A stretch of DNA of 64,000 bases from the UHGV virus genome UHGV-1363143; one strand, 5' to 3'. The translations under genes and the position numbers were made by a program. The notes under the pieces were generated by a model. It was not told the origin of the DNA. It did not search any database and saw only the letters and a list, made by a program, of their open reading frames with translations. Origin of the DNA: a virus. This document shows, one piece after another, positions 1 to 61,049 of this stretch (within the stretch, counting starts at the first letter, position 1; each line of letters starts with the position of its first letter).

Positions 1-303
1 CCATCCATTAGGATACTCAGGTATATTAGATTCATCTAATTTAACTACTTTGATGTGAGGCATATCTATAAGCTCTTGAGATAACCATTGTATTCTAAGG
101 TTAACATTAATTTCAGGAATGCCTGATTCTTTACAGATTCTTCTGCTTCTTTCTATATTGTCACTTACTACTACATAAAGTTTTTGAACCTTTGTGGCAG
201 CATTTAATATAGCTGTTAAATGTCCTCTATGTGGAGGAAGGAATTTACCAAAGTAAACTCCAACCTTAGGCATATCATTTAAATTGAAAATTGAACCACT
301 CAT
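1..303 (-). CDS. NMN/NaMN adenylyltransferase domain protein (NadR-like), C-terminus beyond window edge
   Basis: Minus-strand ORF starting with ATG at 303..301. Translation MSGSIFNLNDMPKVGVYFGKFLPPHRGHLTAI... carries the GxFxPxHxGH nucleotidyltransferase motif. Its start directly abuts the pnuC stop. Confidence 0.55.
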   Translation of the reverse strand, partial: MSGSIFNLNDMPKVGVYFGKFLPPHRGHLTAILNAATKVQKLYVVVSDNIERSRRICKESGIPEINVNLRIQWLSQELIDMPHIKVVKLDESNIPEYPNGW

Positions 304-984
304 TTATTTCACCTCTTTTATTTGAGCCTTTTTCCATGAATATAATCCAAATATAGAATTGCATAGGTAAACTATCCACATAATTAATGTAGCCATCTCT
401 CCTACACCATTTATTAAAGAGAATGCCCACATGATTATTGATACTACATTGATAATAACCCATATCACCCATTGCTCCATAAATTGTTTAACCATTAATA
501 TCATTGCAATGATAGATAGAATTGTTGAAGTTGAATCTAAGAATGGTAGATAATTACCTAAAGACTTTAAGAAGAATCCATAGAAAATAACTAAGGAAAC
601 TGATATTCCGACTAATCTAATTCTTCCTTCTGTGCTAAGACTTTTTGATTCTATTTCTCCATCATTCTCTTCCTTAGCTTTCTTCCACATATAAAGACCT
701 ATAAATTGCATAGGCAAGTAATATAACGCATTTAACATTACTTCTCCATAGAAGCTAGCTTGGTAAGATAAAATAGCATAAGTAGAAACATTAATAGCAC
801 CAAATAAATAATTTAATGACATTCTCTTAGCTACTAGGATTACAGATAAGATACCTGTTAATGAAGATACAATCGCTAAGGGACTATCTCCCCAATAAAG
901 GCTTAAACCTAGTGTAGATAATGTCGCAACTGTTACCCATAAAATTTCATAAAGCTTCCAGTTTTTAAATATTGTTTTGTTCAT
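304..984 (-). CDS. pnuC: PnuC-family nicotinamide riboside transporter
   Basis: 226 aa, multi-pass membrane protein rich in Trp and Tyr. Size and hydropathy pattern are typical of PnuC, and it is operonic with the NMNAT-like gene. Confidence 0.55.
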   Translation of the reverse strand: MNKTIFKNWKLYEILWVTVATLSTLGLSLYWGDSPLAIVSSLTGILSVILVAKRMSLNYLFGAINVSTYAILSYQASFYGEVMLNALYYLPMQFIGLYMWKKAKEENDGEIESKSLSTEGRIRLVGISVSLVIFYGFFLKSLGNYLPFLDSTSTILSIIAMILMVKQFMEQWVIWVIINVVSIIMWAFSLINGVGEMATLIMWIVYLCNSIFGLYSWKKAQIKEVK

Positions 985-1082
985 ATACTTTTCTCCTTCG
1001 ATTTTTGTTTCAAAATTATGTTATGTCTTAAAAAATAAAAAGACTACTTTTACGAAAAGCTTCGCAAAAATAGTCATATTTT

Positions 1083-1112
1083 ATTTATAAAAATAGAGAC
1101 TGCTATGCAGTC
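1083..1112 (-). terminator. rho-independent terminator candidate (GACUGC-AUA-GCAGUC then U-rich tract)
   Basis: A 6-bp perfect inverted repeat overlaps the stop codon of the SNF2 helicase gene and is followed by a U-rich tract on the minus strand. Confidence 0.4.
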
Positions 1113-2944
1113 CCTTTAGCTAAACTCTTAATTAGCTCTAAATCATAATTTTCTTTTTTAGCAACAACTTTTAGTTGAATTTCATCCCAACTCTCTTGTG
1201 CTATTAGTTGATATACAAATACGTTATCATGAACGCTATCAGCTCTTTCTAGTCTACCATGTCTCTGTGTCTGAATAGCATAACTACCAGCTATATCATA
1301 TTCAATTAGATATTTGCATTTAGATAAATTTAAACCTTCAGCTCCAGCATCAGATAACAATAATACCTTATAATCTGGATTATCTCTAAATTTATCATAT
1401 ACTTCAACACTTCTTTCTTGTGATGATAATGTTCCATTAACATATGCTATTTTAATGTTTTTATTGTATTTATGGATCCTCTCAGTTATAACGTGTTGCA
1501 TTCTTTCAAATTTTGAAAATACAGCAACCTTTTCTCCTGATTCAACAATTTCTTCTATTAAATCCATAAATAAATCCATCTTAGGATTCTTCTTTGTTTT
1601 CACTACATACTTTTTAGCAAATTCAGAATCACTATCCTCTAAAAGCTTTGGTTCGTTTGCAATTTCTTGAGCAAATGTTTGTAGTGCTAATATTTGAGCT
1701 CCTATTTTTTGAAGCTCAGGATTTAATTTAGCTTCTAGCTCTGTTCTACATTTAGATCTTATTGCGAAATCTTGTTCCTTCAATTCATCTAATTGTTGCA
1801 TGATTGTATTATTCATATCATACTGTTCTTCTGTAAGTGTAACATACCTTTGAATGACCTGTAATTTAGGTAATTGATCACTTATTTCTTCTTTTGATTT
1901 AATCATAATATATGGTCCAATAGTTTTAGTAAGTTTATTGCCGTTACGCACTCCTGCAATCCTGCCTCTCCCTGCCCATTTAATAAATTCAGATGAGAAT
2001 TTACTCCATGAAGGAAATAAGTCTGGTTTAATAAATTTAAAAATTGAATAAACGTTTTCAGGATTTTTTGTAATAGGAGTAGCTGTTGCTCCAACCTTTA
2101 TTTTTGCTTGGAACTCTTGTAACGCTTTTGATCTTTTACTATCTTTTGAACCTATCATGTGAATTTCATCAGCAAAGATAAAATCTAATTTCATTGAATG
2201 AAGTTGTTGACGAATAGTATCATCAAGTAAGGCTTCATAATTAACTACAAACAAATCATGTCCTTCAAACTGTTCTTTAAACTTAGAGGATATCTTTTCT
2301 TCTAATCTTAAATTCTCAAGTTTAATATCACTGATTTTATCTTTGTCTTTTATCTTGTCTAGTGTTTTAATTAACTTTTTATTCTTGTTAATTTTAGACT
2401 TTGTGTATGCTGAAATACTTGATGGCGATTCAACTGCTACAGCTTTTAAGTCACTAAACTTGCTAACTTCATTAACCCATTGAGTTTTTAATGAAGCTTT
2501 TACAACAATTAAGCCTTTTCCTGAAATCATTCCTCTTTCAGTGGCCTCGATAAACATTCCTATTCCTGATGGAGTTTTACCAGCTCCACAAGGCAATACT
2601 AGTAAAGCATTATTATTATCAAGTACGAATTTAATAGCCTCTCTCTGATATATATATGGCTTTAATTTCATGGATAAGCCTATTTCATCAAGTGATTTAT
2701 CGTATCTTCGTATTTTAGGTAAACTGTGTTCTACACTTATGTTTAAATAACTATAAGCATTGATAAAAGATTGAAGATCTTCTTCATACAGTTCCCATTG
2801 TTTAGTGATAAAATTGAAGTGTACAAATGGATTGTACACAACAATATTTAAAAATTCACTAAGTTCAGTTTTTTTGCCCAAGAATTTCAACCTATATTTT
2901 CTAGAAATAACTCTTTCTATTTTTAATAGTTCCATAGGTTGCAT
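1103..2944 (-). CDS. SNF2/DEAD-DEAH family ATP-dependent helicase
   Basis: Walker A LVLPCGAGKT, DEIH box (FADEIHMIG) and C-terminal helicase motif VI QTQRHGRLER. Confidence 0.75.
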   Translation of the reverse strand: MQPMELLKIERVISRKYRLKFLGKKTELSEFLNIVVYNPFVHFNFITKQWELYEEDLQSFINAYSYLNISVEHSLPKIRRYDKSLDEIGLSMKLKPYIYQREAIKFVLDNNNALLVLPCGAGKTPSGIGMFIEATERGMISGKGLIVVKASLKTQWVNEVSKFSDLKAVAVESPSSISAYTKSKINKNKKLIKTLDKIKDKDKISDIKLENLRLEEKISSKFKEQFEGHDLFVVNYEALLDDTIRQQLHSMKLDFIFADEIHMIGSKDSKRSKALQEFQAKIKVGATATPITKNPENVYSIFKFIKPDLFPSWSKFSSEFIKWAGRGRIAGVRNGNKLTKTIGPYIMIKSKEEISDQLPKLQVIQRYVTLTEEQYDMNNTIMQQLDELKEQDFAIRSKCRTELEAKLNPELQKIGAQILALQTFAQEIANEPKLLEDSDSEFAKKYVVKTKKNPKMDLFMDLIEEIVESGEKVAVFSKFERMQHVITERIHKYNKNIKIAYVNGTLSSQERSVEVYDKFRDNPDYKVLLLSDAGAEGLNLSKCKYLIEYDIAGSYAIQTQRHGRLERADSVHDNVFVYQLIAQESWDEIQLKVVAKKENYDLELIKSLAKGTA

Positions 2945-2952
2945 TCCTCCAT

Positions 2953-3792
2953 TTAGTCATGAACTCCAATTATATCTAGCATTTCTTTACAGATATTAAC
3001 TGTTTCTAGCTCAAGATCGTATTTTTCGCAGATATAAATAGCTGATTTTCTGCTCAACAGGTCTTTAGCCAACGAATCTCTTTCTTCTTTATCTATATAG
3101 CATTGTTCATCTAAAGAATCATATAGTAATTTAAATTTCTTACCAAGTCTTTTGTATACCTTAGGAATATACGATTTTGATACCTCTGCTTCCTCGGCTA
3201 TTTCCGCTTGGCTTTTCCCTTTTATTTTAAGAAGATAAACTCTTCTTTCTTTATCTGTGCAGGCATCTATTAGTTCTAATAAAAGGTAAATAAAGTCAAG
3301 CAAGAACTCTTGAAATACTACTACATCATCTATATCACAATTATCTCCCACTAAATTCAAGAGTTCTATACTTTTCTTATCCGAAGAAGGATTAGGAATT
3401 ATAGAATCTAGCGAATAATTCATCTCATTTCTTAATATGTTATTTTTTTGAGCCTCTAAAGAACGTTTAATCATTCCAAGCTTGGACTCACATACTATAA
3501 ATATCCATGATGACAATCCAGATCTATCTAGATCACATTTATTTACATTTTTAAATATGTGCGCCCATAGCTCATTATGCATATCTTCTAGATCGTATTG
3601 ACCTTTACTCAAAGTATTAATGGCTGGATACCACTTTTTAGATATATCCCACACTAATCTATCATACTCTTCATAAAATATAGTTGTTTCCGGTTCTTTA
3701 CCATCAATAACACACTTCAGAAATTCTTTATTGCTATTAATATTTTTTAAATTCATAATTCTCCTCCCCATTTTACAGACACTATTCTGCAT
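2953..3792 (-). CDS. sigma-70 family RNA polymerase sigma factor-like protein
   Basis: The C-terminus (RVYLLKIKGKSQAEIAEEAEVSKSYIPKVYKRL) resembles the region 4.2 helix-turn-helix. A region-2-like segment lies upstream. Confidence 0.5.
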   Translation of the reverse strand: MQNSVCKMGRRIMNLKNINSNKEFLKCVIDGKEPETTIFYEEYDRLVWDISKKWYPAINTLSKGQYDLEDMHNELWAHIFKNVNKCDLDRSGLSSWIFIVCESKLGMIKRSLEAQKNNILRNEMNYSLDSIIPNPSSDKKSIELLNLVGDNCDIDDVVVFQEFLLDFIYLLLELIDACTDKERRVYLLKIKGKSQAEIAEEAEVSKSYIPKVYKRLGKKFKLLYDSLDEQCYIDKEERDSLAKDLLSRKSAIYICEKYDLELETVNICKEMLDIIGVHD

Positions 3793-5032
3793 ATCTATAC
3801 ATATATTGCTTGTCTATTTCTGTAACAAATCTCGACTCTTGAGTCCTGATATAGCTTCCTTGCTTAAGCGTATAAATAGGCCTTGTAATAAAAAGGAGTT
3901 TTTTTGCTCGTGTAACGGCAACATACATTAACCTTCGTTCTTCTTCGTAATCTGCCTCTGTAGTTGCTCTATATGAAGGTATTACTCCCTCATTTGATCC
4001 TGCAATAATAACAATATTCCATTCCAATCCTTTACTGCTATGCATAGTTAATAACTGTACGCAGTTCTCTTCATCCTGATTTTGTTCTGCAATAGTGCTA
4101 TCTAAATTTATATTGTCGGATAATTCTTCCATACTTTCAAAGTGAGTGGCTAATTCTATTAGCTCTTGAATATTTTCTATTCTATCGTCAGCAATGTTTT
4201 TCTTTTCACTCTCTCTGATATAAGGAATATAACCTGTTATTCTTAGCATAGTCTCTATTGCAATGTCTGGAGTGTTAGTCTCCATTTCTACAGATAGTTC
4301 CCCTACTATATCAAGAAAATCTTTAGCACTTGACTTTGCTTTTCCTGTTAAATTTATTTGCTCTAATGCTTCAATTAAATTACATGAATTTGTTTTTGCA
4401 AAGTCAATTATTTTCTCGACTGTTTTGTCTCCTAGTCCTCTTTTTGGTGTGTTTATTGCTCTTGAGAAAGCAATTGTATCATTAGGGTTTATTATTAACC
4501 TAAAATAAGAAATTATATCTTTAATTTCTTTTCTACTATAAAAGTTGGTTCCTCCTACAATTTTATAAGGAATTCTATATTTAAGAAGAGCATCTTCTAT
4601 TTGTCTAGATAGATAGTTCATTCTATATAAAATAGCTATATCACTGTACTTGTAACCATATTTTTTAACTGATAATTCAATTAATTTAACTATTCTTGCT
4701 GATTCTGCCATAGGATCTTTTTCAGGAAAAAATATAATTGGATTACCTTTTTCATTATTAGATCTTAAGCTTTTTTCTACTAGCTGTTTATTATTACTTA
4801 TTAAACTTTTAGAAGCGTCAACTATCATTGAAGTACTTCTATAATTAGTATTTAATAGATGTACTCTCATGCCAGTAAATATGTTTCTCATATTCATTAC
4901 AGCTTCTATCTTAGCACCTCTAAAAGCATAAATGCTCTGGTCATTATCAGCAATCATACAAATATTTTGGTTTTCTCCTGTAAGAAGATATATTAATCTT
5001 AAATCCATTACAGAAGAATCATGACTCTCATC
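3782..5032 (-). CDS. UvrD/PcrA-family helicase, exon 2 (motif II D-E onward, motifs III-VI)
   Basis: DESHDSSVMDLRLIYLLTGENQNICMIADNDQSIYAFRGA aligns with UvrD DEFQDTN...GDDDQSIYGWRGA, and NTNYRST is also present. Reading frame is continuous with exon 1 after removal of 5033..5613. Confidence 0.75.
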   Translation of the reverse strand, partial: DESHDSSVMDLRLIYLLTGENQNICMIADNDQSIYAFRGAKIEAVMNMRNIFTGMRVHLLNTNYRSTSMIVDASKSLISNNKQLVEKSLRSNNEKGNPIIFFPEKDPMAESARIVKLIELSVKKYGYKYSDIAILYRMNYLSRQIEDALLKYRIPYKIVGGTNFYSRKEIKDIISYFRLIINPNDTIAFSRAINTPKRGLGDKTVEKIIDFAKTNSCNLIEALEQINLTGKAKSSAKDFLDIVGELSVEMETNTPDIAIETMLRITGYIPYIRESEKKNIADDRIENIQELIELATHFESMEELSDNINLDSTIAEQNQDEENCVQLLTMHSSKGLEWNIVIIAGSNEGVIPSYRATTEADYEEERRLMYVAVTRAKKLLFITRPIYTLKQGSYIRTQESRFVTEIDKQYMYRYAE

Positions 5033-5613
5033 CTTTTTTGTAAATCTAATTAATAATATAATGTTTCATCTTTTTAGAATAATCTCCTTTCAACACGAAC
5101 TTACGTTCTTATCATATTTTAGCATATTTCCAATATATACTCAATAATAAATACATTTAACAAAAGTATTTATTATTCACAAAAAAAGCGTAACATTAAC
5201 AATAATATTAGATTTTTCTTACTTTCGCAAGTGTGGACTATATCATCATCTCATAATTACTAATTTTAGCCCTATTGCTAGTTCTAGTTTTATGAGAATG
5301 CCTCTTGTTTCACGCAGAGTTACCTTTCGGCACTTTGCTAGTCTCTGAACCTTCTTCCACCCTGGCATATAATTATATGTTACATTGGAAGCTTGGCTGC
5401 TGATTCCCCATTATTAAGGTCCTTAGCACCATCATATTTAATGATAGCTTTTATTTCAGCTTAGACTATCCTTAGTTATTTTTTCTGCCTTTCGGCGACA
5501 TTCACGCTTGTCCTTACGGACTACGTTGTAGTTAACTTAGGCTTTAGGGATTGTTCCAGCAATTAAAGAGGTACGCACACTACGTCACCGTAATATGGGC
5601 CGATGAGTTCAGC
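5033..5613 (-). mobile_element. ORF-less group I self-splicing intron (581 nt) interrupting the UvrD-like helicase gene
   Basis: The 5' exon ends in U and the intron ends in G. On the minus-strand RNA I can read a P element UUAAUUGCUGGAA, a Q element GGGAAUCAGCAGCC, P7 GUUCAGAGACUAGCA and P7' GAUAUAGUCC. GC content is raised relative to flanks, and an in-frame stop falls shortly after the 5' splice site. Confidence 0.75.
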
Positions 5614-6258
5614 AACGATATATTGGTATTGTCTATTGATTTCAGATTTGACTTCAGGGAATTGTTCTAACAATCTAACCGTCTTATAAATTAAATCATC
5701 AAAATCTACACAGTTATCTTGCATCATTCTGGAATGATAGAGTTGATAGAGTTCTGCGAATTGTCTTTCTATTGTATTGGTTGATTCTCTCAACGCTTGA
5801 CTTGGACTTATTAGCTGACATTTATAATCTGATATTTTCCATAATACCTTATCAGCTTCAAAATTGTAACCAGATGTTTTAATGATTTCTTTCATTAATT
5901 TCTTGCAATCTTCAGTATCGCATATACTAAAAGATTTAGTAAGTCCAATATAATTTGCATATTTTCTTAAAAATCTACTGCATACACTATGGTATGTACC
6001 GACCATTATACTATTTGCTTCAGGTCCTATAGTAGCAGTTACTCTTTCTTTGATTTCCATAGCTGCTTTCTTAGTAAATGTAAATAATATAATTTTATCA
6101 GCCGGTATTCCGCTTTTAATCATGTTAGCTGTTCGAACTACTAAGGTAAAAGTCTTACCAGCTCCTGGACCAGCTATAACCATTGAAGGTCCATGAATAT
6201 CTATTGCGGCTTCCTTTTGTTCATCATTAAGTCTATTAAATAATTCTGATAGTTCCAT
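5614..6258 (-). CDS. UvrD/PcrA-family helicase, exon 1 (Walker A, motif Ia, up to motif II ...QYQYIV)
   Basis: AGPGAGKT Walker A, TFTKKAAMEI motif Ia. Ends with ...RQYQYIV, matching UvrD ...RFTNILV immediately before the DE of motif II. Confidence 0.75.
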
Positions 6259-6307
6259 TTTAAGCCTCCAAATAAAAAAGGGGAGTTGTTTAATACTCCC
6301 TCAATAC

Positions 6308-6511
6308 TTAATTCAATTTTATAGTAACTGGTGATGAGGGATCTGCTTCATAAAATTCTTTTGTTTTTTCTTTTGATACAATTGTTCCACCTAATGCAAG
6401 CTCTAAATCTTTAGTTCTTTCTATACATGAAGTACCTGCAAATCCTTCCTTAGCTTGAAATGTATATCCACCTTTTTCATTTATTCTTATTTCAACTGTT
6501 TCTTTTCTCAT
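6308..6511 (-). CDS. hypothetical small protein
   Basis: 67-aa ORF, operonic with neighbours. Confidence 0.4.
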   Translation of the reverse strand: MRKETVEIRINEKGGYTFQAKEGFAGTSCIERTKDLELALGGTIVSKEKTKEFYEADPSSPVTIKLN

Positions 6512-6520
6512 GATTGCCTC

Positions 6521-7243
6521 CTAGTTTTCAATATCTTTTAATATTGCCTCAACAGTTTCTTTTGCTATTGACGCAAGATTGATATCATAAGAAATAGTAT
6601 TAAAATAATCATCATCATTTAATACATTTCTATTTGGATATCTTTTTAAAACAAGTTTATTCTCTCCAATATTGTTTTCTATTTCTTCTAGTAAAATTAT
6701 TGGAGCATTATCTAGCTTCACTACTACTCCATTTGGAAAATTATCATCATTTCTTTTGAAAGTTAATTCTCCTACTATAGTATTAATTACTAATTCTTTT
6801 ACCTCTGCCATATTTTCAATATAATTTTCAAGATCTGTTTTAAATTTTTGCAACTGTTTTGTTCTATCTTCTGTATTTAGTTGCAAAAACATTAATAGGC
6901 TATCAAAATCATATTTATCAATATAACTCATAGTATTGCTCATAATATTGTATGGCAATATTATCATTTTCACATTATCATAACCATCTTCTTTGTTTTT
7001 CGATTTAATTGCATCCTCTATATTATTTGTATATAAGAATTTAGATAAATCACTATATTTATCATAATATATTAGTGCAGTTGCTTTTGGTAACTCATCT
7101 GATTTATTAACTAATTGTTTAACTATAAATTCAATACTATCGTTTAAATATACTGACAGAGTATGAACGTTATTAATTTTTTGTTTAAGTATAGTAACTG
7201 TTCCTATATCTGTATATAATTTCATCTCGATTTTATCTATCAT
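6521..7243 (-). CDS. hypothetical protein
   Basis: 240-aa ORF. Confidence 0.5.
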   Translation of the reverse strand: MIDKIEMKLYTDIGTVTILKQKINNVHTLSVYLNDSIEFIVKQLVNKSDELPKATALIYYDKYSDLSKFLYTNNIEDAIKSKNKEDGYDNVKMIILPYNIMSNTMSYIDKYDFDSLLMFLQLNTEDRTKQLQKFKTDLENYIENMAEVKELVINTIVGELTFKRNDDNFPNGVVVKLDNAPIILLEEIENNIGENKLVLKRYPNRNVLNDDDYFNTISYDINLASIAKETVEAILKDIEN

Positions 7244-7296
7244 GTATTCGCTCCCCCAATATCTTTAAGGTTATCACTTCAGTCTTTTAAATTATA

Positions 7297-7707
7297 TTAT
7301 ACTACATAACGACTTGCTTGTATAACAATTTCCTTTGTCTTACTATCTATGGATATATCTTCCTTGTTTATTGTCCATCCTTGTTTTTCACATTGAAAAA
7401 TTACATCATGCTTTTTATAAGCTTGTGATAATCTATCTATAAAAGTCTTTTCATCTATTCCTGTACAGAAGAAATCACCAGCTACTTCTAGGTTAGTGTT
7501 TTTTCCTTCTTTTATGAATTTTATTCCTATTGATAATGGCTTCCCATCTCTAACGAATCCAGCGTCAACTTTTTCTGTTATCCAAGTATTTTGAATTAAC
7601 TTAATATCATGGTCTATAGTTAATCCTAAATCTTTTGCTGCTCTTGATAATAATGTTTTTTTACAGTTTACTAATACTTTTGAATTATAAGTTGTTAAAT
7701 GTGACAT
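7297..7707 (-). CDS. hypothetical protein
   Basis: 136-aa ORF. Confidence 0.45.
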   Translation of the reverse strand: MSHLTTYNSKVLVNCKKTLLSRAAKDLGLTIDHDIKLIQNTWITEKVDAGFVRDGKPLSIGIKFIKEGKNTNLEVAGDFFCTGIDEKTFIDRLSQAYKKHDVIFQCEKQGWTINKEDISIDSKTKEIVIQASRYVV

Positions 7708-8033
7708 TGAGATCTCTCCTTTTGTTTTAAAAAATATTTATATTTCTTCCCATTTAGGGATACATACATATTATTATGACTTGTTTTACTTAAGTGAAGT
7801 TTTAAAGCTGGTATATAATGTTTAGCAGCAAATACTTCTCTTAAACCATTTTTCGAATTATAGAATATTGGCATATATTCTATTTGATTACTTTCTAAAT
7901 AATCTAAAATTATTACTTTTGTTAATGTGCTATGAGGTTTCCCATTCATACTATATAATCCAAATGCTTCAGCTATTTCTTTTGGATATAACATATGCTC
8001 TTCAGTTTTTATTTCTAAATAAAACTTATACAT
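7695..8033 (-). CDS. hypothetical protein
   Basis: 112-aa ORF. Confidence 0.45.
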   Translation of the reverse strand: MYKFYLEIKTEEHMLYPKEIAEAFGLYSMNGKPHSTLTKVIILDYLESNQIEYMPIFYNSKNGLREVFAAKHYIPALKLHLSKTSHNNMYVSLNGKKYKYFLKQKERSQCHI

Positions 8034-8410
8034 TAGAATGGATCATCTTTTTGATTAGATATATATTTATTGATTAAATCTTTATACATATCTTCTCTCA
8101 TAGCTAAATAATCTTGTTCAGAAATAAATGGTGGTCTATTTCCTTCAAAAATAGGTTTTACTAATGATTCTAATATTTCTTTTACAAGAAAAAATCTTAC
8201 TTGTTCTCCCATAACATCATTAAATATTTTTTTAAATGCAGCTAAACTCGATACCTTTTTCACAAATTCATTTGCAAGATTTTCATATTCTTTGATTTCT
8301 TTATATCCATTTGCTTGTACTATTTTTAACTTATTTAATGCTTCTGGATTATCAGCATTAGCTACTGGCTCTGTTTTTTTTAAGCTTATGTTAATAACAT
8401 TTGATGACAT
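8033..8410 (-). CDS. hypothetical protein
   Basis: 125-aa ORF. Confidence 0.45.
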   Translation of the reverse strand: MSSNVINISLKKTEPVANADNPEALNKLKIVQANGYKEIKEYENLANEFVKKVSSLAAFKKIFNDVMGEQVRFFLVKEILESLVKPIFEGNRPPFISEQDYLAMREDMYKDLINKYISNQKDDPF

Positions 8411-8420
8411 ACATTACCTC

Positions 8421-10079
8421 CTAACCTCTTTTTAAATCATCTATTGAAAGAATTCTTGATATTTCTTTATTATTGTTAATATTACAACCATATTCATTGA
8501 TTAATTGATTACTAAATCTAGCTCTACTTTTTGCATATTCATTTAGTGCTGCAATTTTTTCTCTAGATGATTTGGCTACAGGAATAACTTCAACACAAGC
8601 TTTTTGAATATCTTCTTGTGTAATTTCTTTATTGCCATCTTTTCTGTATCTAGAAAAAGCTTTCTTTAATGTATTCTTAACAGCTTCTTTGATTTCTGCT
8701 CCAGTAAAATCATTTGTTATGTCAGCAGCATAAGTTAATAAAGAATCGTCTAAACTTTTTCCTAACTTATTAAAATGTATATTAAATATATCTTTTCTTT
8801 CATCCTTTTCAGGTAATCCAAAATACCATATAGCATCTAATCTACCAGCTCTAGTAAGTTCAGGTGGTAATTGTGACACATCATTTGATGTCATAACCAC
8901 AAATACTCCATGATCTTCTGCTAAGAATTCTAATATAGCTCCTATTGATCTTGCCATAGTACCTGCATCACTTGAACCACTTGATTGCATACCTGATAAA
9001 GTTTTTTCTACTTCGTCAATCAATAATACACATGGAGCTGTAGCCTTTATCATTCTAATAGCTTGAGCCATATTTTTTTCTGAACTACCCACTTTTGAAT
9101 CTAAAATTTTTGACATATCTAATTTTAAAAATGGAAGGCTCATTGATGTAGCTAAAGCTTCAGCTAATAAAGTTTTTGCAGATCCTGGTACACCTAATGC
9201 TAAATATCCTTTTGGTTTTACACACCCAAATTCCATTGCCTCTGGTGTCATAGCATCCATTACTTCATCAATCCAAGATTTAAAACCAGCATTTCCTCCA
9301 ATTTCATCAAGACTTGAATTTGGGATTTTATAATCTAGCACATTTGATTTTTTTACCAGCTCTATCTTATAATTGCTAATTTCATCTACAGAGATTGTTT
9401 TATTTTTAACCAATGATATTCTAAAACTACACGCTATTTCTTCCAATGTCAATCCTTTACAGGAATTTATTATCAATTCTTTATCCTCTTCACTGACTGG
9501 AATGAAGCCTGGTGTTCGTTGACCTGCCATTAAAGCTGCATTAAGAATGTTCCTAATTAAATTTTCGTCAGGTGTATTATAATCAACTACTGAGAAGATT
9601 TTTTCATGTTCTATTGGTATCTCTGTTACTGGAGAAATTATAATAATTGTATTATAGTTTAGGTACTTTCCTTCAACTATATCTCTAAGCATTCTTTTTA
9701 TATTTGGATTATCTATCATAAGATGAAAGTCTTTTAATATGAAGATATTATTTTTATCTTCAATTACAGTTTGTCCATCCTCTTTCATCATTTCAATAGT
9801 TTCATCATCCATTTCTATACCTCTAGTAATGTCGTATATAGTTTTTAATAATTTATCGACACCAATAGAAGGATCTAGTTTATTTTCTCTATTTGAAGTT
9901 AATTCTACCTTCTTTATACCAGTAGCAAATGAATGAACATATATTGGCATAGGTATTCTTAAAGCTGTAGAAACTTCTTTTATGTCATTAATAACTGCTT
10001 CTTCTTCATATGTATTTATCCAAATACATTTTGCCTTAGCGTTTATTAAATTTAAAACTTCGTTCATACACTCTCTCAT
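8421..10079 (-). CDS. AAA+ family ATPase with large N-terminal domain
   Basis: Walker A GVPGSAKT, Walker B LLIDEVEK, sensor region MTSNDVSQLPPELTRAGRLD. Confidence 0.7.
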   Translation of the reverse strand: MRECMNEVLNLINAKAKCIWINTYEEEAVINDIKEVSTALRIPMPIYVHSFATGIKKVELTSNRENKLDPSIGVDKLLKTIYDITRGIEMDDETIEMMKEDGQTVIEDKNNIFILKDFHLMIDNPNIKRMLRDIVEGKYLNYNTIIIISPVTEIPIEHEKIFSVVDYNTPDENLIRNILNAALMAGQRTPGFIPVSEEDKELIINSCKGLTLEEIACSFRISLVKNKTISVDEISNYKIELVKKSNVLDYKIPNSSLDEIGGNAGFKSWIDEVMDAMTPEAMEFGCVKPKGYLALGVPGSAKTLLAEALATSMSLPFLKLDMSKILDSKVGSSEKNMAQAIRMIKATAPCVLLIDEVEKTLSGMQSSGSSDAGTMARSIGAILEFLAEDHGVFVVMTSNDVSQLPPELTRAGRLDAIWYFGLPEKDERKDIFNIHFNKLGKSLDDSLLTYAADITNDFTGAEIKEAVKNTLKKAFSRYRKDGNKEITQEDIQKACVEVIPVAKSSREKIAALNEYAKSRARFSNQLINEYGCNINNNKEISRILSIDDLKRG

Positions 10080-10106
10080 ATGTTTGTCTCCTTTCCTGTG
10101 TGTTAA

Positions 10107-10982
10107 CTAAAAATCAAAATCAGCAAATAAATTATTTACAATATCTTGATCTGCGTTATTGGTATTAAACATAGATTCTCTACTAGCAAGCAATTCTGCT
10201 CTTTCATCAAAATAGAAATCATAATCTAATATATTATTGTTTGTTTCTGCTATTATTGGTTCATCACAAGGAACAGAATAGCAATTAGTTACTTTAAGTT
10301 TATACTGTCTTATTATTCCTTCTGTATTACTTATGATATCAAAATCATTAATTACGAAATTATAATGACCAGTAAAAAATTCTATTTTTGATACATTTAT
10401 ATCTTTTAATGAGATATAAGATACTACATCATTTAAGTTAATTAGAAATTCATTATCATCACTTAATGAAGTTTCAAAGCTATTAATAATTGCTACAACT
10501 TCATTATTTGTATTTATGATTCTTCCAACAAAATCATATTTTTTATCTGCAAGAATCTCTCCAGTGAATGCGAAGAAATCTCTCATTAATTCGTCTATTG
10601 CCTTTCTTTTAACTTCTAATATTAATTCATGTTCTTCAAAAGAACGATTTTGGTATATAGTTTCACATAATGCATCTGTAAAATCCTGAATTTCTATCTT
10701 TGCTGCAGTAGCTTTATGATCATTAATTATTGCAGATACATTAACATTAATAGGATCTATATCTTTATTGAATTCACATACAAACGATATTTCTGTTTTA
10801 CCATTTTTGCATGTAGCTTTATTAATAGTATCTACTTTTATAGGAACTATAACTGCTTTAGACACTTCTTCTAGTAGCAAATAATCATATGTTCCATCAT
10901 CTTCACATACAAAACTAGCATAAACACCTTCTTTACCAGTCAAATCTACTTGTTGTATACTATTTCTTTCATATAAAGCCAT
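10107..10982 (-). CDS. hypothetical protein
   Basis: 291-aa ORF. Confidence 0.5.
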   Translation of the reverse strand: MALYERNSIQQVDLTGKEGVYASFVCEDDGTYDYLLLEEVSKAVIVPIKVDTINKATCKNGKTEISFVCEFNKDIDPINVNVSAIINDHKATAAKIEIQDFTDALCETIYQNRSFEEHELILEVKRKAIDELMRDFFAFTGEILADKKYDFVGRIINTNNEVVAIINSFETSLSDDNEFLINLNDVVSYISLKDINVSKIEFFTGHYNFVINDFDIISNTEGIIRQYKLKVTNCYSVPCDEPIIAETNNNILDYDFYFDERAELLASRESMFNTNNADQDIVNNLFADFDF

Positions 10983-10992
10983 ACTGTACCTC

Positions 10993-11673
10993 CTATCCTA
11001 TAAAATAAGTCTTACATTCTAAATCTTTTAAGATATATTGCAAGTCATTGCTATTAGTTAAGAACATGCTATCTATATCTCTCATGGCAAATCCATACTT
11101 CTTTTTTGTATTCCATATAATTTGATTTCCTGAGCCTACTGAACTTAATAATCCATCTTCTTTTTCTCCATCCCATAGTCTTTCATCTTGCTTATACTCC
11201 CCATCAACTATAATATCTACGATTTTAGCTAATCTTCCTAGCTTATCTCTGAATATACTTTCTGGAGTTAAAGCTGAATTAACTATAAGACCTTTACCTA
11301 TATACTTCTTTAGTTCTAAATGAGTATAAATCATAATGTGAAATCCATATTTTTTAAGTTCTTCACACAAAATTAGTAGATTATCTATTTGATCAGTTGG
11401 TTCACCTCCACCAATAGTTATATATTTATTAGGAGCAAATTCATTTATATGTTTAGCCATATCTATTGGATTGTGACTAATTTCTGCTTTTGAAACATCC
11501 CATGTACTGCTGTTAAAACAACCTTTACATGGATTACCTAGCATAGCCTTTTTACATCCTAATAAAAATATCTCTGTTCTATTATTATCATCTGGACTAG
11601 GGCCTGCAGTTTTTACACTCCATCTTACATCCCTCAATAATAATCCATTTAAATCATTGTTAGCCTTGTACAT
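10993..11673 (-). CDS. nrdG: anaerobic ribonucleoside-triphosphate reductase activating protein (NrdG-like radical SAM)
   Basis: GCKKAMLGNPCKGCFNSSTW resembles E. coli NrdG GCVHECPGCYNKSTW. IGGGEPT resembles LSGGDPL, and IIVDGEYKQD...GNQIIW resembles VLVDGKFVQD...SNQVV. Confidence 0.65.
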   Translation of the reverse strand: MYKANNDLNGLLLRDVRWSVKTAGPSPDDNNRTEIFLLGCKKAMLGNPCKGCFNSSTWDVSKAEISHNPIDMAKHINEFAPNKYITIGGGEPTDQIDNLLILCEELKKYGFHIMIYTHLELKKYIGKGLIVNSALTPESIFRDKLGRLAKIVDIIVDGEYKQDERLWDGEKEDGLLSSVGSGNQIIWNTKKKYGFAMRDIDSMFLTNSNDLQYILKDLECKTYFIG

Positions 11674-19423: not shown

Positions 19424-19771
19424 CTATAACTTTGTATTCTTTAGGATTTTTTCTAAACTCTCAGAAATAAACTTATAAGATTCTATTTGTCCTATTACAT
19501 CTGGAGTCTTAGGTAATTCTGATAGTAGATTAATCCTTTGTTTTGCTATACCTGAAACTAATCTTAAGATCGGTTTACAAGTATACATATCAAATAGCCC
19601 ATCTTGATCTTTGCATAATGTAGCAGCTTCCTCTAAAAGGATTGCTACTACACTATGCTTTACTGCTTTTTCATTATCAAATTTGGAAGATGATAACATT
19701 GCCCCAATATAATTAACTAATCCAGCTCTAATTTGAGTTTGGTCATTTGAATAAGCCATCTTATTCTTCAA
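19424..19771 (-). CDS. hypothetical protein
   Basis: 115-aa ORF. Confidence 0.4.
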
Positions 19772-22235
19772 CCTCCTCTGAATTATAAGAACTTACCGAG
19801 ATTCCTACTATTGCATCTCCTTCATTTAAAGTTAATAGCTTAACTCCTGAAGCAGATCTTCCAGTAATAGAAATATCTTCAGCCTTAACTCTAATCATTA
19901 AGCCTTGTTCAGTAACTATAAATATGTCATCTTCATTATTGACTGTATCGGCTGCTATGATATAACCTGTTCTTTCATTAATCTTATGAGAAACTATACC
20001 TTTTCCTCCACGACCTTGAATTGTATACTCATCTATAGCAGTTCTCTTACCTAATCCTGATGAAGTTAAAGTAAATAAGTAAGCCTTATTACATAAACTC
20101 ATGCCTACAACATAATCATTTTCATTTTTGAACTTCATACCAGTAACTCCAGTAGCAGTTCTACCCATTGGTCTTATGCTCTTTTCATCAACTGTAGTTC
20201 TTAATGATAAACCTGTTGCAGTATTTAAAATAACAGTATCTCCTTCTGATACAAGAAGTACTGCTGTTAAGCTATCTCCTTCTCTAAACTCAATTATCTT
20301 AGTAACAGATAATCTTGTTGATAGCTTATCAAGTGGTAATCTTTTAATAACACCTTTTTGTGTAGCTATTAATAAACTCTTAGAGGTATCATTTGTGTTT
20401 GCTGCTATTACATTTACAATATGTTCTCCATTTTCAGTATCTAAAGATAAGAAATTAAATATAGACTTACCTCTAGCGCCCTTATTGCTCTTTGGTATCT
20501 TATAAGCTTTTAATAGATGAACTTTACCTAAATTAGTAAAGAACATTATGTTATCCTTACTATTAGTAGTAAACATATACTTAATGATTTCATCTTCCTT
20601 AGTATTAGCCGCCTTAGTTCCCTTACCGCCTCTTCTTTGAGTGTTATATTCATCTTCACTTACACTCTTAATTAAACCAGTATCAGTAATTGTTATAACT
20701 AAAGCTTCATCTTTTATAAGATCCTCTTCATTTATTGATGAAGAATCATTTGTAATGCTAGTTCTTCTTTCATCTGAGAACTTATTTCTTAAAGCATTAA
20801 ATTCTATCTTCATGGTTTGAAGTAAAGCATTATTATCAGTAAGTATTTGGTACCAAGCTGACATATTAGCTTCAATAGAAGCTTTTTCTGCATTTAACTT
20901 CTCCTCAGAAGCTTTGCTTAAAGTCTTAATCTTCATTTCAGCAATATATTCTGCTTGTTCTTGATTAAAACCTAATTCTACTAATGCTTGTACAGCATTA
21001 TCTGAATGTCTAATAGCGTAAATAACTCTATCAAGCATATCTCCCTCAAAACACATTAAGATACCATTGACAATGTTATATCTCTTTTCTGCTTTTGCAT
21101 AATCATATTGTGTTCTTCTAATGATTACATTAGCAGCATGAGCTAAAAAGCTATTTAATATTTCATATATGTTTAAAACCTTAGGTTCACCATTTATAAT
21201 TACAGTATTATTAATAGAGAAATTGCATTGTAGATCTGTATGTTTTAATAGCTTATTGATTGCTAATTGAGGATTAGCATCTTTTTTAAGTTCAACAACT
21301 ATTCTTATACCTGTTTTATCAGATTCATCTCTAACTTCTTTAATTTCTCCTATAATAGCAGGTTTATCTGGCTTACCTTTTTCTTTAGTTACTCTAGATA
21401 AGGCATCCATTCTTTCTACTAATTTAGCTTTATTAACCTTATAAGGAATTTCTGTGATGATAATATTATTTTTTTCATCAGCTTCAAAAACACCTCTTAC
21501 AGTAACTCTGCCGTTACCTGTCTTATATGCTTCTTTAACTGTATCAATATTTACAATAGTTCCTCCTGTTGGAAAATCAGGAGCTTGTAATAATTCAATT
21601 ATTCTATCTATTGATATTGATTCTTCAGTCATAGTGCAATCAATCATATAATCTAATGCATTATAAACATCATTTACATTATGAGGTGCCATATTAGTAG
21701 CCATGCCGACTGCTATACCCATATTTCCGTTAAGTAACAAATTAGGTACAAGTGAAGGCAGTACAGCTGGTTCAACTTCTTCTCCATCAAAGTTTGGAAC
21801 TAAATCTATGGTGTTTTTATTTATATCTTCCATCATAGTTTGACCATATACAGATAACTTAGCTTCTGTATATCTCATTGCAGCTGCTCCATCACCATCA
21901 ATAGATCCAAAGTTTCCATGTCCAGCTATCATTGGATATCTCATAGTAAAATCTTGAGCCATTTTTACCATCGCTTCATATACTGATGAATCACCGTGAG
22001 GATGATATTTACCTAATACATCCCCTACGATTCTTGCACTCTTTTTATATGGCTTATCAAATGTTAATCCTAGTCCATTTGTTCCATATAATATTCTTCT
22101 TTGAACTGGCTTTAAACCATCATATACATCAGGTAAAGCTCTTTCGGTAATTACACTCATAGCATAATCTACAAAATGTTTTTTCATAGAATCTGCTATA
22201 CTTACCTTATCAATTCTTTCAATTACATCTGACAT
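19761..22235 (-). CDS. gyrA: type IIA topoisomerase subunit A (GyrA/ParC-like)
   Basis: [12 protein letters not shown] and [11 protein letters not shown], the latter carrying the active-site Tyr. Confidence 0.85.
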
Positions 22236-29392: not shown

Positions 29393-30361
29393 CTATCTGT
29401 ATTCAATATTGAGTTTATCTAGCACATGTGCCATTCCTAGTCCCTTTTCAGGAACCCATATTCCTTCATCATTATATGTTCCGCCTCTCATACAGTAATC
29501 GTACATTTCAGGATGTGATTCTTTCATTCTCTGAAATCTATTTTTACCTTTTTCCATATGACAGCCGAAAATACACCCAACACAGCCTGTACGCTTTTCT
29601 CCTGTTGTTTTGAATTTCTTTTCATTATTATCATAAACAACTTCACCATACACTTCTGCTATGTCAAGTTTATATTCATAAATGTATTGAAGAATGTCTT
29701 GTTCTGTCCAAAAACCTAATGGATTGGACTTAGGCTCACTGCAATTAAATGCATTACAGCCACCATTATTTAAATATCTTATTTGCCTGTTTTGACTTTC
29801 ATCGGCCATAACTCCAGTTATAGGAATTCGGCCAGTTTTTTTATTATATTTTTTGAAAGGTCTTTTTTTCATAACATCGCAACACTTCTCACTTATTTTG
29901 AAGTCAGCTGAATTTAATAAGTAATGCCACTTATCACTCAGTTTACCTGCTCTGCCTTTTTCATCTCCATGCAATAACTTATTTCTATAAGCTGAGCTTA
30001 AATTTTGGGTAGTAAGTTTTCTAAATGCCATAGCTTGAGATTTAGAAATGCAAGGATACCCATAATGAGTTATTGTTTGAGCATAATTCATATCAGGTCT
30101 TATAACTTCATCAGCAATTTCTTTCGCTTTGTCAATTACTTCTCTATATTCCAAAGTAGTATTACAAAATACACTAGGTATATCTGGATATCTATTTTTT
30201 ACTATATGATGTAAAACTGAACTATCTTTACCTCCACTTATAGATGTATATAATCCATTAGTAGTAAATTGATATACAGCTTCATCAAGTCGCCTTTCAG
30301 TTTTTGCAATCTTAAGCTCTAATGGCAATGCTTGTGCCATCTTTAGTTCTCCTATATTCAT
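29393..30361 (-). CDS. PAPS-reductase-like PP-loop protein with Cys-rich DUF3440-like C-terminus
   Basis: SGGKDS PP-loop and C-terminal Cys clusters (CCDVMKK...GCNAFNC...GCVGCIFGCHMEKGKNRFQ). Confidence 0.6.
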   Translation of the reverse strand: MNIGELKMAQALPLELKIAKTERRLDEAVYQFTTNGLYTSISGGKDSSVLHHIVKNRYPDIPSVFCNTTLEYREVIDKAKEIADEVIRPDMNYAQTITHYGYPCISKSQAMAFRKLTTQNLSSAYRNKLLHGDEKGRAGKLSDKWHYLLNSADFKISEKCCDVMKKRPFKKYNKKTGRIPITGVMADESQNRQIRYLNNGGCNAFNCSEPKSNPLGFWTEQDILQYIYEYKLDIAEVYGEVVYDNNEKKFKTTGEKRTGCVGCIFGCHMEKGKNRFQRMKESHPEMYDYCMRGGTYNDEGIWVPEKGLGMAHVLDKLNIEYR

Positions 30362-35915: not shown

Positions 35916-35990
<75 letters not shown>

Positions 35991-38345: not shown

Positions 38346-38352
38346 ATATTAT

Positions 38353-57483: not shown

Positions 57484-58083
57484 TTAAAACTCCCTTTGTG
57501 CAAATTGTAATTTATGTTTATAATAAAGACTTCTCATGATTAGAGCAGTCTTAATTGAAACCATGTTTTCATCAATAAATTTTAATGCATCATTCATTTT
57601 AATTACTATAGGCTCTATATCTTCATGGCCTTCATTATGTTCTGTAGAGATCTCTCCAGTTACATTTGCAATATAAACCGCGCATGATTCATCACTCATA
57701 CCTACAGATGTATAGCTTGGCTTAAGTATTTGTTCTATACAATAACAAGATAAACCAACTTCTTCATAAAGTTCTCTTTTAACTGCAGCATTAGTTGATT
57801 CACCTACATCTACTAATCCAGCAGGAAATTCATAAATATAGTCATCTATCGCTGGTCTATACTGCTTTATCAACACAAGGTCTGAATTATCGAATATAGG
57901 CACTATAAGTACTGCATCAGCCTTATTATGGTCTTTAGATATACATGATAGTCTTCCTTTATTTTTCCTTCTTGAAGCGACATAATAAGGGTATATATCT
58001 CCTGTTTGATCATTAGTAACTTCTATGTTATATAAATTAAGAAAGTTATTATCTGTTATTTTTTTTACTCTATTTACTGACAT
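57484..58083 (-). CDS. NUDIX hydrolase (ADP-ribose pyrophosphatase-like)
   Basis: Nudix box GLVDVGESTNAAVKRELYEEVGL. The start is set at the internal ATG 58083, which has an AAGGAG RBS. The upstream extension overlaps ORF 58112..58339. Confidence 0.65.
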   Translation of the reverse strand: MSVNRVKKITDNNFLNLYNIEVTNDQTGDIYPYYVASRRKNKGRLSCISKDHNKADAVLIVPIFDNSDLVLIKQYRPAIDDYIYEFPAGLVDVGESTNAAVKRELYEEVGLSCYCIEQILKPSYTSVGMSDESCAVYIANVTGEISTEHNEGHEDIEPIVIKMNDALKFIDENMVSIKTALIMRSLYYKHKLQFAQREF

Positions 58084-58111
58084 GTTAATTGCTCCTTTAG
58101 AGCCAGCGGCC

Positions 58112-58339
58112 CTATAGCTGAATACTATTTTTGGCCGCAATAGCTTCTTCTTTTGAATTATATAGATTGTCCCAATCAATATTGTAGTAATTAGACCATG
58201 GCCCAATCTCTACATGCATTCCAGGACATTCTCCCATTTCTGTTGTAGCTAAAACGTCTTTAGCTTTTTCAACAGTTAAATCTGTAAAATCAAATGTAGT
58301 AACTTCTCCACATTTTTTACATTTACCTAATACGTACAT
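58112..58339 (-). CDS. small zinc-ribbon protein
   Basis: 75-aa ORF with CKKCGEV...ECPG. Confidence 0.4.
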   Translation of the reverse strand: MYVLGKCKKCGEVTTFDFTDLTVEKAKDVLATTEMGECPGMHVEIGPWSNYYNIDWDNLYNSKEEAIAAKNSIQL

Positions 58340-59983: not shown

Positions 59984-60400
59984 CTAAGCCTTAAGATTAT
60001 CTCTTACTCTCATAAGAATTTTACCTAACTTATTTTGACCTATACCAGCACATACGCCCCAGTATCTATCATTCCATGTGTTGCCTTCAATAAGTTCAGC
60101 GTCACCTGTATCTAATAGCCGTTTGGCCAGCACAGGATTTTGTTCGAACTTAGCCTGTACTATTTCGTACATAATGCCATCTTTTACTTCTTCCCAGTCT
60201 TTTCTTAAAAGAACTCTTCTACCTAATCTCTTAGCATCGCTAGGATTTAAGTCTGCAAATTCTTTTCTACCTTCCCCAAATATTTTTTGAGCATGAAAAG
60301 CAGCTTCTGCATTTTTGTACGTTATATTTTTAAAAGTAATATCTGAATTATAGAAATTACTTAAAAAACGATATTTACCATTAAATGATGCTATTATCAT
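59984..60400 (-). CDS. NADAR-family (YbiA/DUF1768-like) ADP-ribose-processing protein
   Basis: FLSNFYNSDITFKNITYKNAEAAFHAQKI...AKRLGRRVLLRKDWEEVKDGIMYEIVQAKFEQNPVLAKRLLDTGDAELIEGNTWNDRYWG matches the NADAR pattern. Confidence 0.65.
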   Translation of the reverse strand: MIIASFNGKYRFLSNFYNSDITFKNITYKNAEAAFHAQKIFGEGRKEFADLNPSDAKRLGRRVLLRKDWEEVKDGIMYEIVQAKFEQNPVLAKRLLDTGDAELIEGNTWNDRYWGVCAGIGQNKLGKILMRVRDNLKA

Positions 60401-60868
60401 CTAATTGCCTCCTTCGTATTTATATAATGTTATGTGCACTGGCCAGAGAGGATTGTCAAAATATTCTTCAATCAATCTGTATACTTCTGACCAGTTAGCT
60501 CCGCCTCGTCCACATCCTATTCCATAAGGCATAGCAATCGAATAATTATGTCGAATTGCATAATCTCTTAACTTCATAAAACATGTTTCTAAGGCTTCTA
60601 TGTTTGTATATTGTTTGTCCCATCCATAAGAGTCTTGTCCAAATATATTACATATAACTTTGCCATTAGTCATAGTTAACATTTGTATTTTGCCAAGCAA
60701 TTCTGATCCCATAGTTTTGCAATACTTTTCGTAATTAGGGAATATTGATGGATAAGTTTCTCTAAGTTCTTTTGCTACACCTGAACCCATTACACCTTTA
60801 CAGTTAACTTGATGGGCGATAATATTCTCTGTAGCTTTAACTACATTTCCTTCAATAATATTAATCAT
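60401..60868 (-). CDS. Macro-domain protein (ADP-ribose binding/hydrolase fold)
   Basis: IIEGNVVKATENIIAHQVNCKGVMGSGVAKEL has a macro-domain-like N-terminus. The start is set at the internal MINII. The track alternative begins at 60937. Confidence 0.6.
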   Translation of the reverse strand: MINIIEGNVVKATENIIAHQVNCKGVMGSGVAKELRETYPSIFPNYEKYCKTMGSELLGKIQMLTMTNGKVICNIFGQDSYGWDKQYTNIEALETCFMKLRDYAIRHNYSIAMPYGIGCGRGGANWSEVYRLIEEYFDNPLWPVHITLYKYEGGN

Positions 60869-61049
60869 CTTCTTTTTCCTTTTCTGTTTCCTGTTTATCA
60901 GTTTCTGGTTGGCAAGCTCTACACCTACCCATATCATCTAAATTTTTGTTATTACAAAATCTAGAACAACATTTACATCGTGTAAGCATAATTCCTCCTA
61001 TAATATATATTATGTTATATATTCAATTAGAAACTATAATAGAAAAATA

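Follow-up and report, generated by a model that had tools for sequence, protein, structure and literature searches.

The 64,000-nucleotide stretch of virus genome UHGV-1363143 that was analysed here (the window) begins with two adjacent genes on the minus strand, pnuC and nadR, which encode a PnuC-type transporter and a NadR-like enzyme. The pair is very probably a two-gene module of the NARP3 type that, by analogy with its characterised homologues, would convert nicotinamide riboside (NR) into nicotinamide adenine dinucleotide (NAD+). NARP3 was described in the Escherichia phage TrudiRoth, where it consists of the PnuC-like protein Bas30_87 and the NadR-like protein Bas30_86, which lacks a helix-turn-helix (HTH) domain (Sci Adv August 2026, PMC13464706). 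In that study, NR was bound by Bas30_87, a trimeric transporter, and converted to NAD+ by Bas30_86 through its ribosylnicotinamide kinase (RNK) and nicotinamide mononucleotide (NMN) adenylyltransferase (NMNAT) domains. Only both genes together restored NAD+/NADH and rescued phages T7 and lambda from the Sir2-HerA defence, and the pair also counters DSR1 (PMC13464706). The kind of system is therefore already described and experimentally validated, and the pair in the window is a new, divergent example of it.

The pnuC and nadR genes

The complete pnuC gene lies within the window (Table 1). Its product matched the Pfam family NMN_transporter (PF04973) with an E value of 9.9e-47 and 159.6 bits (cut-off 27.3), and the equivalog model TIGR01528 with 150.1 bits, more than 3-fold above the cut-off of 42.45. 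In PHROGs the match was to phrog_1880, 'PnuC-like nicotinamide mononucleotide transport' (E 3e-60). The PnuC structure of N. mucosa (4QTN, NmPnuC) was matched over its full length (E 7.8e-43), and three of the four NR contacts of that protein are kept in the phage protein, as Q93, N179 and Y206 (Q124, N214 and Y242 of NmPnuC as numbered in PMC13464706). A W172/W175 pair, hydrophobic segments and an internal repeat of three helices can also be made out.

The nadR open reading frame (ORF) runs out of the window after 101 codons; it starts MSGSIFNLNDMPKVGVYFGKFLPPHRGHLTAI. The best NCBIfam matches of this 101 amino acid (aa) fragment were NadR models (NF005988, E 7.6e-17; TIGR01526, E 4e-16), and in PHROGs it matched phrog_3462, 'nicotinamide-nucleotide adenylyltransferase' (E 2.9e-22). 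Both the PnuC and the NadR family are already named in PHROGs and in GenBank annotations. The remainder of the gene was found on a metagenomic scaffold of 238,204 bp (ERZ28636782 scaffold_19, locus L001), which is 100% identical to positions 1..10984 of the window (10,984 nt, without mismatches or gaps) and for this reason was taken to be the same genome. The full-length protein, read at L001:10682-11743, has 353 aa and matched NF005988 with 248.8 bits (cut-off 201) from profile position 61 to 406 of 411. As the match begins at profile position 61, the N-terminal HTH domain is absent; the protein begins 12 residues before the NMNAT domain. Pfam placed CTP_transf_like at residues 16-158 and AAA_28 at residues 178-340 (E 7.5e-34), and the NadR motifs GKFLPPHRGH, ISATEIR, GSESCGKT (Walker A) and FFDTD are all present. 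The four matches in the PDB were all NadR enzymes, aligned from end to end: 9X6F (1.3e-70), 1LW7 of H. influenzae (1.5e-57), 8X7F and 6GYE of L. lactis. The first of these, like 9X6H, is a crystal structure of Bas30_86. Judged by its sequence, the phage protein is an enzyme-only homologue, not a trifunctional NadR regulator.

A first-pass annotation of the window had read the two ORFs as a PnuC-type transporter and an HxGH NMN adenylyltransferase of the NadR type, with abutting stop and start codons and an RNK domain expected beyond the window edge. All of this held: both proteins exceed curated cut-offs of their families, and AAA_28 lies where the kinase was expected. The pnuC stop codon TAA (306..304) is followed without a gap by the nadR ATG (303..301), and a GAGGTG sequence is located 6 nt 5' of this ATG, within the end of pnuC. 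This layout is compatible with translational coupling. The same abutment of stop and start is present on an IMG/VR contig (L010/L099).

Other expression signals were searched for around the pair. A pattern scan found four terminator-like sites in positions 1..1400, against 0.4 expected from shuffled sequences, by consensus match only; two of these are hairpins with T-tracts between pnuC and the gene upstream (Table 1). A scan for sigma-70 promoters found 11 sites where 9.0 were expected, none above chance level upstream of pnuC. A search of positions 1-3000 against Rfam, with E values up to 1, gave no match, and the NAD+-II (pnuC motif) riboswitch was not found.

Some NadR homologues of jumbo phages, 70-77% identical to the protein described here, have N-terminal extensions in the place of the HTH domain (P0020, P0011, P0019 and P0027). 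The extension of P0020, of about 270 aa, consists of repeated CxxC zinc-ribbon units and that of P0011 is a single zinc ribbon, and P0019 and P0027 have an unassigned domain of about 145 aa. These could be true fusions or gene-calling artefacts. A PnuC-NadR fusion, considered for these homologues of 410-615 aa, was ruled out, as the extensions are zinc-ribbon repeats or the unassigned domain.

For comparison with NARP3, the Bas30_86 residues named in the paper were mapped with a +6 offset of the PDB chain, which was checked against all 17 letters. Ten of the 17 are identical in the phage protein: K10, F11, S37, E80, P84, G89, F110, I141, K168 and D275 of Bas30_86 correspond to K20, F21, S47, E91, P95, G100, F120, I151, K178 and D285. 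Three more are conservative (D115, R167 and E230 correspond to E125, K177 and D240). By mutagenesis, K10/F11, S37, E80/P84/G89, F110, S112/D115, V139/I141, E230 and D275 of Bas30_86 were shown to be required, as were N45, Q94 and N180 of Bas30_87 (PMC13464706). Two of these three transporter contacts are kept, Q94 as Q93 and N180 as N179. Most of the named catalytic and ligand-contact residues are present in the pair.

Several findings speak against placing the pair in NARP3. The proteins are only 40% (PnuC to Bas30_87) and 38% (NadR to Bas30_86) identical to their counterparts. With 270.8 bits the enzyme stays below the cut-off of 341.15 of TIGR01526, the nadR_NMN_Atrans equivalog domain model. 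Four of the 17 named residues differ: S112, V139, K163 and D164 of Bas30_86 are G122, Y149, P173 and F174 in the phage protein. The last two were placed in the NR pocket (site 1) of the kinase domain by modelling and docking and not by a liganded structure (PMC13464706). In the transporter, N45 of Bas30_87 is G44, a position at which NmPnuC has the same residue as the phage protein, and the fourth NR contact of NmPnuC, Q196, is replaced by M161.

The lost contact would also fit with a different explanation, in which the membrane protein is another Pnu transporter (PnuT for thiamine or PnuX for riboflavin) or the enzyme another HxGH protein (TagD-, CoaD- or NadD-like), so that no NAD+ would be made from NR. 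CTP_transf_like is moreover a generic Pfam family, and the 101 aa fragment by itself scored 20.8 bits with this model, against a cut-off of 21. This explanation is already largely refuted, and we consider it extremely improbable. The transporter passes the PnuC equivalog by a wide margin, the structural matches of the full-length enzyme are NadR throughout while CoaD and NadD models gave less than 30 bits, the kinase domain is of the NadR type, and pnuC and nadR are tightly linked in phages (see below). A TagD-like enzyme next to a membrane protein failing the PnuC models had been raised at first pass as the competing identity; there was no TagD match and the CoaD model TIGR01510 gave 22.7 bits (cut-off 103), compared with approximately 250-270 bits for the NadR models. 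An enzyme of the NadM-Nudix type, as in NARP2, was rejected as well: the models gave at most 31 bits on the fragment and 28 bits on the full-length protein, with cut-offs above 350.

In the NARP3-type reading, PnuC would be a facilitator placed in the host membrane that admits external NR to the infected cell. The C-terminal kinase domain of NadR would then convert NR and ATP to NMN, trapping the NR, and the N-terminal HxGH nucleotidyltransferase domain would join NMN and ATP to NAD+. In this way NAD+ could be synthesised without reliance on the salvage enzymes of the host, and the NAD+ pool could be upheld against defences of the NADase type (with Sir2, TIR or SEFIR effectors) or the demand of the phage itself. 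What PnuC transports, the two activities of the enzyme and the role in counter-defence are inferred from homology to Bas30_86/87 and to bacterial PnuC/NadR. Rebuilding of NAD+ against NAD-depleting immunity, as proposed at first pass, has been demonstrated by experiment for the homologous NARP3 and is extended by homology to the pair studied here. A gene for Nampt (NadV), for which an extension of the sequence had been recommended, was absent from the called genes within 9 kb downstream of nadR on L001.

Given a module that makes NAD+ from NR, the chances of a dedicated counter-defence and of general NAD+ provisioning are roughly even, and the two are computationally inseparable. That the pair is a general auxiliary metabolic module, which would make NAD+ for the heavy needs of a jumbo phage in replication, ligation and redox reactions and would not be dedicated to counter-defence, is a real possibility, though not a probable one. 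The pair is located within a block of replication and nucleotide genes (SNF2 and UvrD helicases, primase, Gam, NrdD/NrdG, thymidylate kinase and topoisomerase II), on the related contig L016 a NAD-dependent DNA ligase is encoded 1.5 kb upstream of pnuC, and the NAD genes of gut jumbo phages have been read as 'independent synthesis and utilization systems' (PMC11662467). However, the homologous NARP3 pair is experimentally sufficient against Sir2-HerA and DSR1. A NAD-dependent ligase, as a consumer of NAD+, was not found in the 73.7 kb of sequence examined (the window and L001), and genes that point to conflict functions lie close to the pair in relatives (see below). Provisioning and counter-defence are compatible with each other.

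The phage genome and the distribution of the pair

The pair is carried by a phage genome of approximately 240 kb with about 30% G + C from the human gut. A search for exact copies of the PnuC protein sequence yielded 12 metagenomic contigs, of which at least one was labelled as human gut metagenome. On an IMG/VR contig of 241,249 bp (UViG_3300014583_000001) NadR is 95% identical and pnuC abuts it as in the window, and NadR homologues with 62-81% identity were present on independent contigs of 226-263 kb. Megablast of positions 1-3000 against 50,697 phage records gave zero matches, and the phage consequently has no close cultured relative. Nearly all genes of the window are on the minus strand, and its G + C content varies by region from 26% to 38%, with about 30% overall.

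Upstream of pnuC are genes for an SNF2-type helicase, a sigma-factor-like protein and a UvrD-like helicase. Downstream of nadR, beyond the window on L001, Mu Gam, a DnaG-type primase, HU, a second NUDIX protein, NrdD/NrdG and a PemK-like protein are encoded. Elsewhere the window contains genes for thymidylate kinase, a Holliday-junction resolvase, UvsX-like recombinases, both subunits of topoisomerase II, an endolysin, RNase H and a DHH phosphoesterase, and an array of 14 tRNA genes.

The pair might instead belong to a segment of bacterial chromosome, a plasmid or a phage-plasmid, where it would serve the NR salvage of the cell itself. The 30 larger ORFs of the window that were scanned with PHROGs did not include any recognisable virion gene, the window encodes partition proteins (ParA-like and others), and the closest cellular NadR homologues reach 56-62% identity. 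We nevertheless regard this as highly improbable, in view of the near-identical locus on the 241 kb viral contig, the relatives on independent contigs of similar size, and the phage-type topoisomerase II, UvsX, endolysin, RNase H, sigma factor, tRNA array and GOLLD RNA in the window. In addition, a test for prophage copies in species-representative cellular genomes gave at most 62% identity to the phage NadR among the best 80 loci, and none of these (0 of 80) had pnuC within 3 kb of nadR. Based on the IMG/VR membership and the replication, tRNA and lysis gene content, we conclude that the carrier of the pair is a jumbo phage of about 240 kb.

Searches with tblastn detected PnuC homologues in 474 phage records; for NadR homologues the number was 776. 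Most host genera had the same or almost the same number of PnuC and NadR records: Salmonella (176 and 173), Klebsiella (47 and 47), Escherichia (38 and 38), Bacillus (24 and 24), Prevotella (Lak phages; 15 and 15), Erwinia (14 and 14) and Aeromonas (10 and 10). To assess linkage, 30 viral loci from IMG/VR that encode a relative of NadR were sampled. PnuC was encoded on the same strand within 10 kb in 24 of these and within 700 nt in 21. The adjacent pairs had the order pnuC-nadR in 14 loci and nadR-pnuC in 7. As both orders are common in viral contigs, the order in the window, reversed relative to that in Bas30, is not unusual.

The nearest cellular NadR proteins (56-62% identity) are enzyme-only forms from Christensenellales, 'Ca. 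Limiplasma' and other metagenome-assembled genomes (MAGs) of gut Clostridia, in ordinary chromosomal contexts. The phage enzyme is nearer to these than to the NadR of any isolated phage (at most 39%), and this suggests that nadR may have been acquired independently of the enterobacterial NARP3. The best 80 cellular loci had a mean G + C content of 58.6%, against 30% in the phage; owing to this mismatch, the Clostridia MAGs with the closest NadR were not accepted as the host. One exception with a low G + C content was found, GCA_009696465.1, with 30% G + C and a NadR that is 62% identical.

NUDIX, NADAR and Macro genes and further features of the window

The first-pass annotation had connected the pair with NUDIX, NADAR and Macro genes about 57 kb away in the window, as an investment of the entire genome in NAD and ADP-ribose metabolism. 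These genes do exist (Table 1), all on the minus strand. The best NCBIfam matches of the NUDIX protein were NudE and ADP-ribose diphosphatase, both below cut-off, and that of the Macro protein was the antitoxin DarG (E 1.9e-21), also below cut-off. The NADAR and Macro genes abut each other.

In related jumbo phages, orthologues of the three genes are located within about 14 kb of pnuC/nadR, so that this part of the proposal, a linkage with the pair, is real in relatives. On L017 a NUDIX gene (6060-6638), whose product is 47% identical to that of the window, abuts nadR, and a Macro gene (46% identity) lies 1.1 kb downstream of nadR. On L018 and L100 a NADAR gene (55-56% identity) is situated between pnuC and nadR, with a NUDIX gene 2.5-3.4 kb past nadR (L018 8972-9559). 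Four contigs of approximately 140 kb (L114, L115, L121 and L125) have the order pnuC-nadR-NUDIX, with the NUDIX gene directly after nadR, at about 11179-11499; their NadR is only 32% and their NUDIX protein only 26-28% identical to the proteins of the window phage.

The other part of the proposal, a role in NAD+ synthesis, is less probable for two of the three genes. Phage NADAR proteins have been described as orphan antitoxins that counter DarTG1 (PMC11825919), and a DarG2-like antitoxin of a chimallivirus is reported as an anti-defence protein. Because the Macro protein resembles DarG and phage NADAR proteins counter DarTG1, NADAR and Macro are probably a separate counter-defence against DNA ADP-ribosylation rather than a part of NAD+ synthesis. 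As judged from these similarities, the abutting genes are likely to encode a pair of orphan 'antitoxins' against DarT-type DNA ADP-ribosylation (DarTG1/DarTG2).

The NUDIX protein, on the other hand, may be a recurrent third partner of NARP3. A wider reading would make NARP3 the core of a five-gene NAD/ADP-ribose counter-defence set in gut jumbo phages of about 225-265 kb, formed by PnuC, NadR, an ADP-sugar-type NUDIX protein, NADAR and Macro and dispersed in the window phage. NUDIX and NadR would together be the split counterpart of the NadM-Nudix fusion in NARP2. The NUDIX protein might then clear ADP-ribose (ADPR) or ADPR-derived signals, or tune NAD+ levels. We consider this reading speculative and rather unlikely; if it is true, the order pnuC-nadR-NUDIX in the unrelated phages of about 140 kb would represent an undescribed functional three-gene variant of NARP3.

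Table 1. Location of the features described in the window (coordinates in nt)
Feature	Position	Strand	Remarks
nadR, NadR-like bifunctional NMN adenylyltransferase/ribosylnicotinamide kinase	1..303	-	first 101 of 353 codons; remaining 252 codons past window edge
pnuC/nadR junction, GAGGTGAAATAAATG	301..318	-	read from sequence: ribosome-binding site (RBS) in pnuC 3' end, TAA abutting ATG
pnuC, PnuC-type NR transporter, 226 aa	304..984	-	ATG start, preceded by AAGGAG RBS
Two terminator-like hairpins with T-tracts	1115..1095, 1075..1042	-	between SNF2-type helicase gene and pnuC; pattern scan
UvrD-like helicase, split in two ORFs	3782-6258	-	N-terminal part 5563-6258, C-terminal part 3782-5008
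Phosphoadenosine phosphosulfate (PAPS)-reductase-like protein	29393-30361	-	phrog_424, E 2e-47; beside AAA ATPase
14-tRNA array	35926-39736	-	ARAGORN; locally G + C-richer block (38% at 36-40 kb)
Skipping-rope RNA	36258-36340	-	RF02924, 58.2 bits (gathering 36.7); within tRNA array
GOLLD RNA, full-length	37263-37708	-	RF02032, 171.8 bits (gathering 150), model positions 1-416; within tRNA array
Sole plus strand block	42988-49917	+	overlaps lowest-G + C stretch of window (0.26, 44-48 kb)
Partition protein	43666-44670	+	phrog_691; in plus strand block
ParA-like partition protein	48596-49411	+	in plus strand block
DHH phosphoesterase	50878-51864	-	phrog_26954, E 7e-28
SpoIIID-like transcription regulator	56682-56957	-	PF12116, E 4.7e-27
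NUDIX hydrolase, ADP-sugar pyrophosphatase-like	57484..58206	-	PF00293, E 2.4e-13; candidate accessory gene
NADAR-domain protein	59984..60400	-	PF08719, E 1e-29
Macro-domain protein, DarG-macrodomain-like	60401..60937	-	PF01661, E 4.6e-09

Some further features of the window were observed. The two ORFs of the UvrD-like helicase are 554 nt apart, and the gap does not contain any ORF of at least 40 aa on the minus strand. Two contigs (L002 and L005) depart from the window just past position 4508-4531, although they match it with 100% identity elsewhere. A variable inserted element or an intron may be the cause; for an intron there was no Rfam match at the gathering threshold. Within the tRNA array, a weak 'tRNA-Tyr' with anticodon ATA (37170-37240, 34.5 bits in Rfam) may be something else. 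The plus strand block with its two partition proteins might be a plasmid-like module that serves the maintenance or segregation of a jumbo phage. A host among the endospore-forming Bacillota is hinted at by the SpoIIID-like regulator. Outside the window, L001 carries a gene for a PemK-type toxin homologue (19602-19979), approximately 9 kb beyond nadR, and a PemK-like gene is also located near pnuC in the relative L016 (2523-2912).

Comparison with known NAD+ salvage and reconstitution systems

Parts of this picture were anticipated. NadR was recorded in medium-sized and jumbo phages in a 2022 survey, and a preprint of 2024 on NARP1 and NARP2 named the pnuC/nadR operon as a probable extra pathway. 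In gut 'NAD-jumbo phages' pnuC was present in 68 of 174 genomes, and a pnuC-nadR-nadM cluster in one, nhp215 (Microbiome 2024, PMC11662467). The recurrent NUDIX partner is possibly the only new angle. In practice the gain is modest and consists of a divergent NadR/PnuC pair that could be used in comparative biochemistry, together with the hint that NUDIX recurs as a third partner.

NARP1 (Adps and Namat) and NARP2 (Nampt and a fusion of a NadM-type NMNAT with Nudix) are, like the pair in the window, phage routes that rebuild NAD+. They do so with other enzymes and from other substrates, namely ADPR and nicotinamide or nicotinamide and phosphoribosyl pyrophosphate (PRPP), and genes for Nampt, Adps or Namat were not encountered in the sequence that was examined. 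The NUDIX gene that abuts or lies near the NMNAT-bearing gene in phage relatives recalls the NadM-Nudix fusion of NARP2.

In bacteria, PnuC and NadR act by facilitated entry of NR followed by metabolic trapping through phosphorylation. The salvage systems of Haemophilus influenzae, Salmonella and Lactococcus lactis share with the phage pair the transporter fold and family and the NMNAT and RNK architecture (4QTN, 1LW7 and 6GYE). The phage copy differs by the absence of the HTH repressor domain and of an upstream Rfam element, and by the adjacency of its genes, which did not occur in any of the best 80 bacterial loci.

Among phages, the gut jumbo phage nhp215 (PMC11662467) has a pnuC/nadR cluster as well, but there nadM is part of the cluster, whereas in the 73.7 kb of this genome nadM was not seen. 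Bacillus phages related to Tsamsa (PBC2 gp052/gp053) are also large and carry a PnuC and NadR-like pair in the order pnuC-nadR; the proteins are 41% and 37% identical to those in the window, and a spacer of 110 nt in PBC2 contrasts with the abutting codons found here. In gene order the window agrees with these examples, which are from large phages of Gram-positive or gut hosts.

With NARP3 of phage TrudiRoth the pair shares three features: a PnuC-type transporter, an HTH-less enzyme with NMNAT and RNK domains, and adjacent, co-oriented genes encoded by a phage. The sizes agree, with a transporter of approximately 225 aa and an enzyme of approximately 350 aa, and Bas30_86 (9X6F) is the best match of the phage NadR among solved structures. 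Apart from the sequence divergence described above, the two differ in gene order, pnuC-nadR here and nadR-pnuC in Bas30, and in their carriers, a gut phage of about 240 kb with 30% G + C as opposed to an enterobacterial siphovirus of 112 kb. TrudiRoth is one of several T5-like Epseptimaviruses with NARP3. NARP3 was described as largely confined to phages of Enterobacteriaceae (PMC13464706). Outside this group, pairs of PnuC and NadR were encountered in uncultured jumbo phages of the gut and in phages of Bacillus, Prevotella (Lak), Vibrio, Aeromonas and Erwinia. Their sequences are deeply diverged, and either gene order is represented; much of this was foreshadowed in the papers of 2022-2024. 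With the pair described here, a jumbo phage of the human gut very probably joins the phages with an NR-based module for NAD+ reconstitution.

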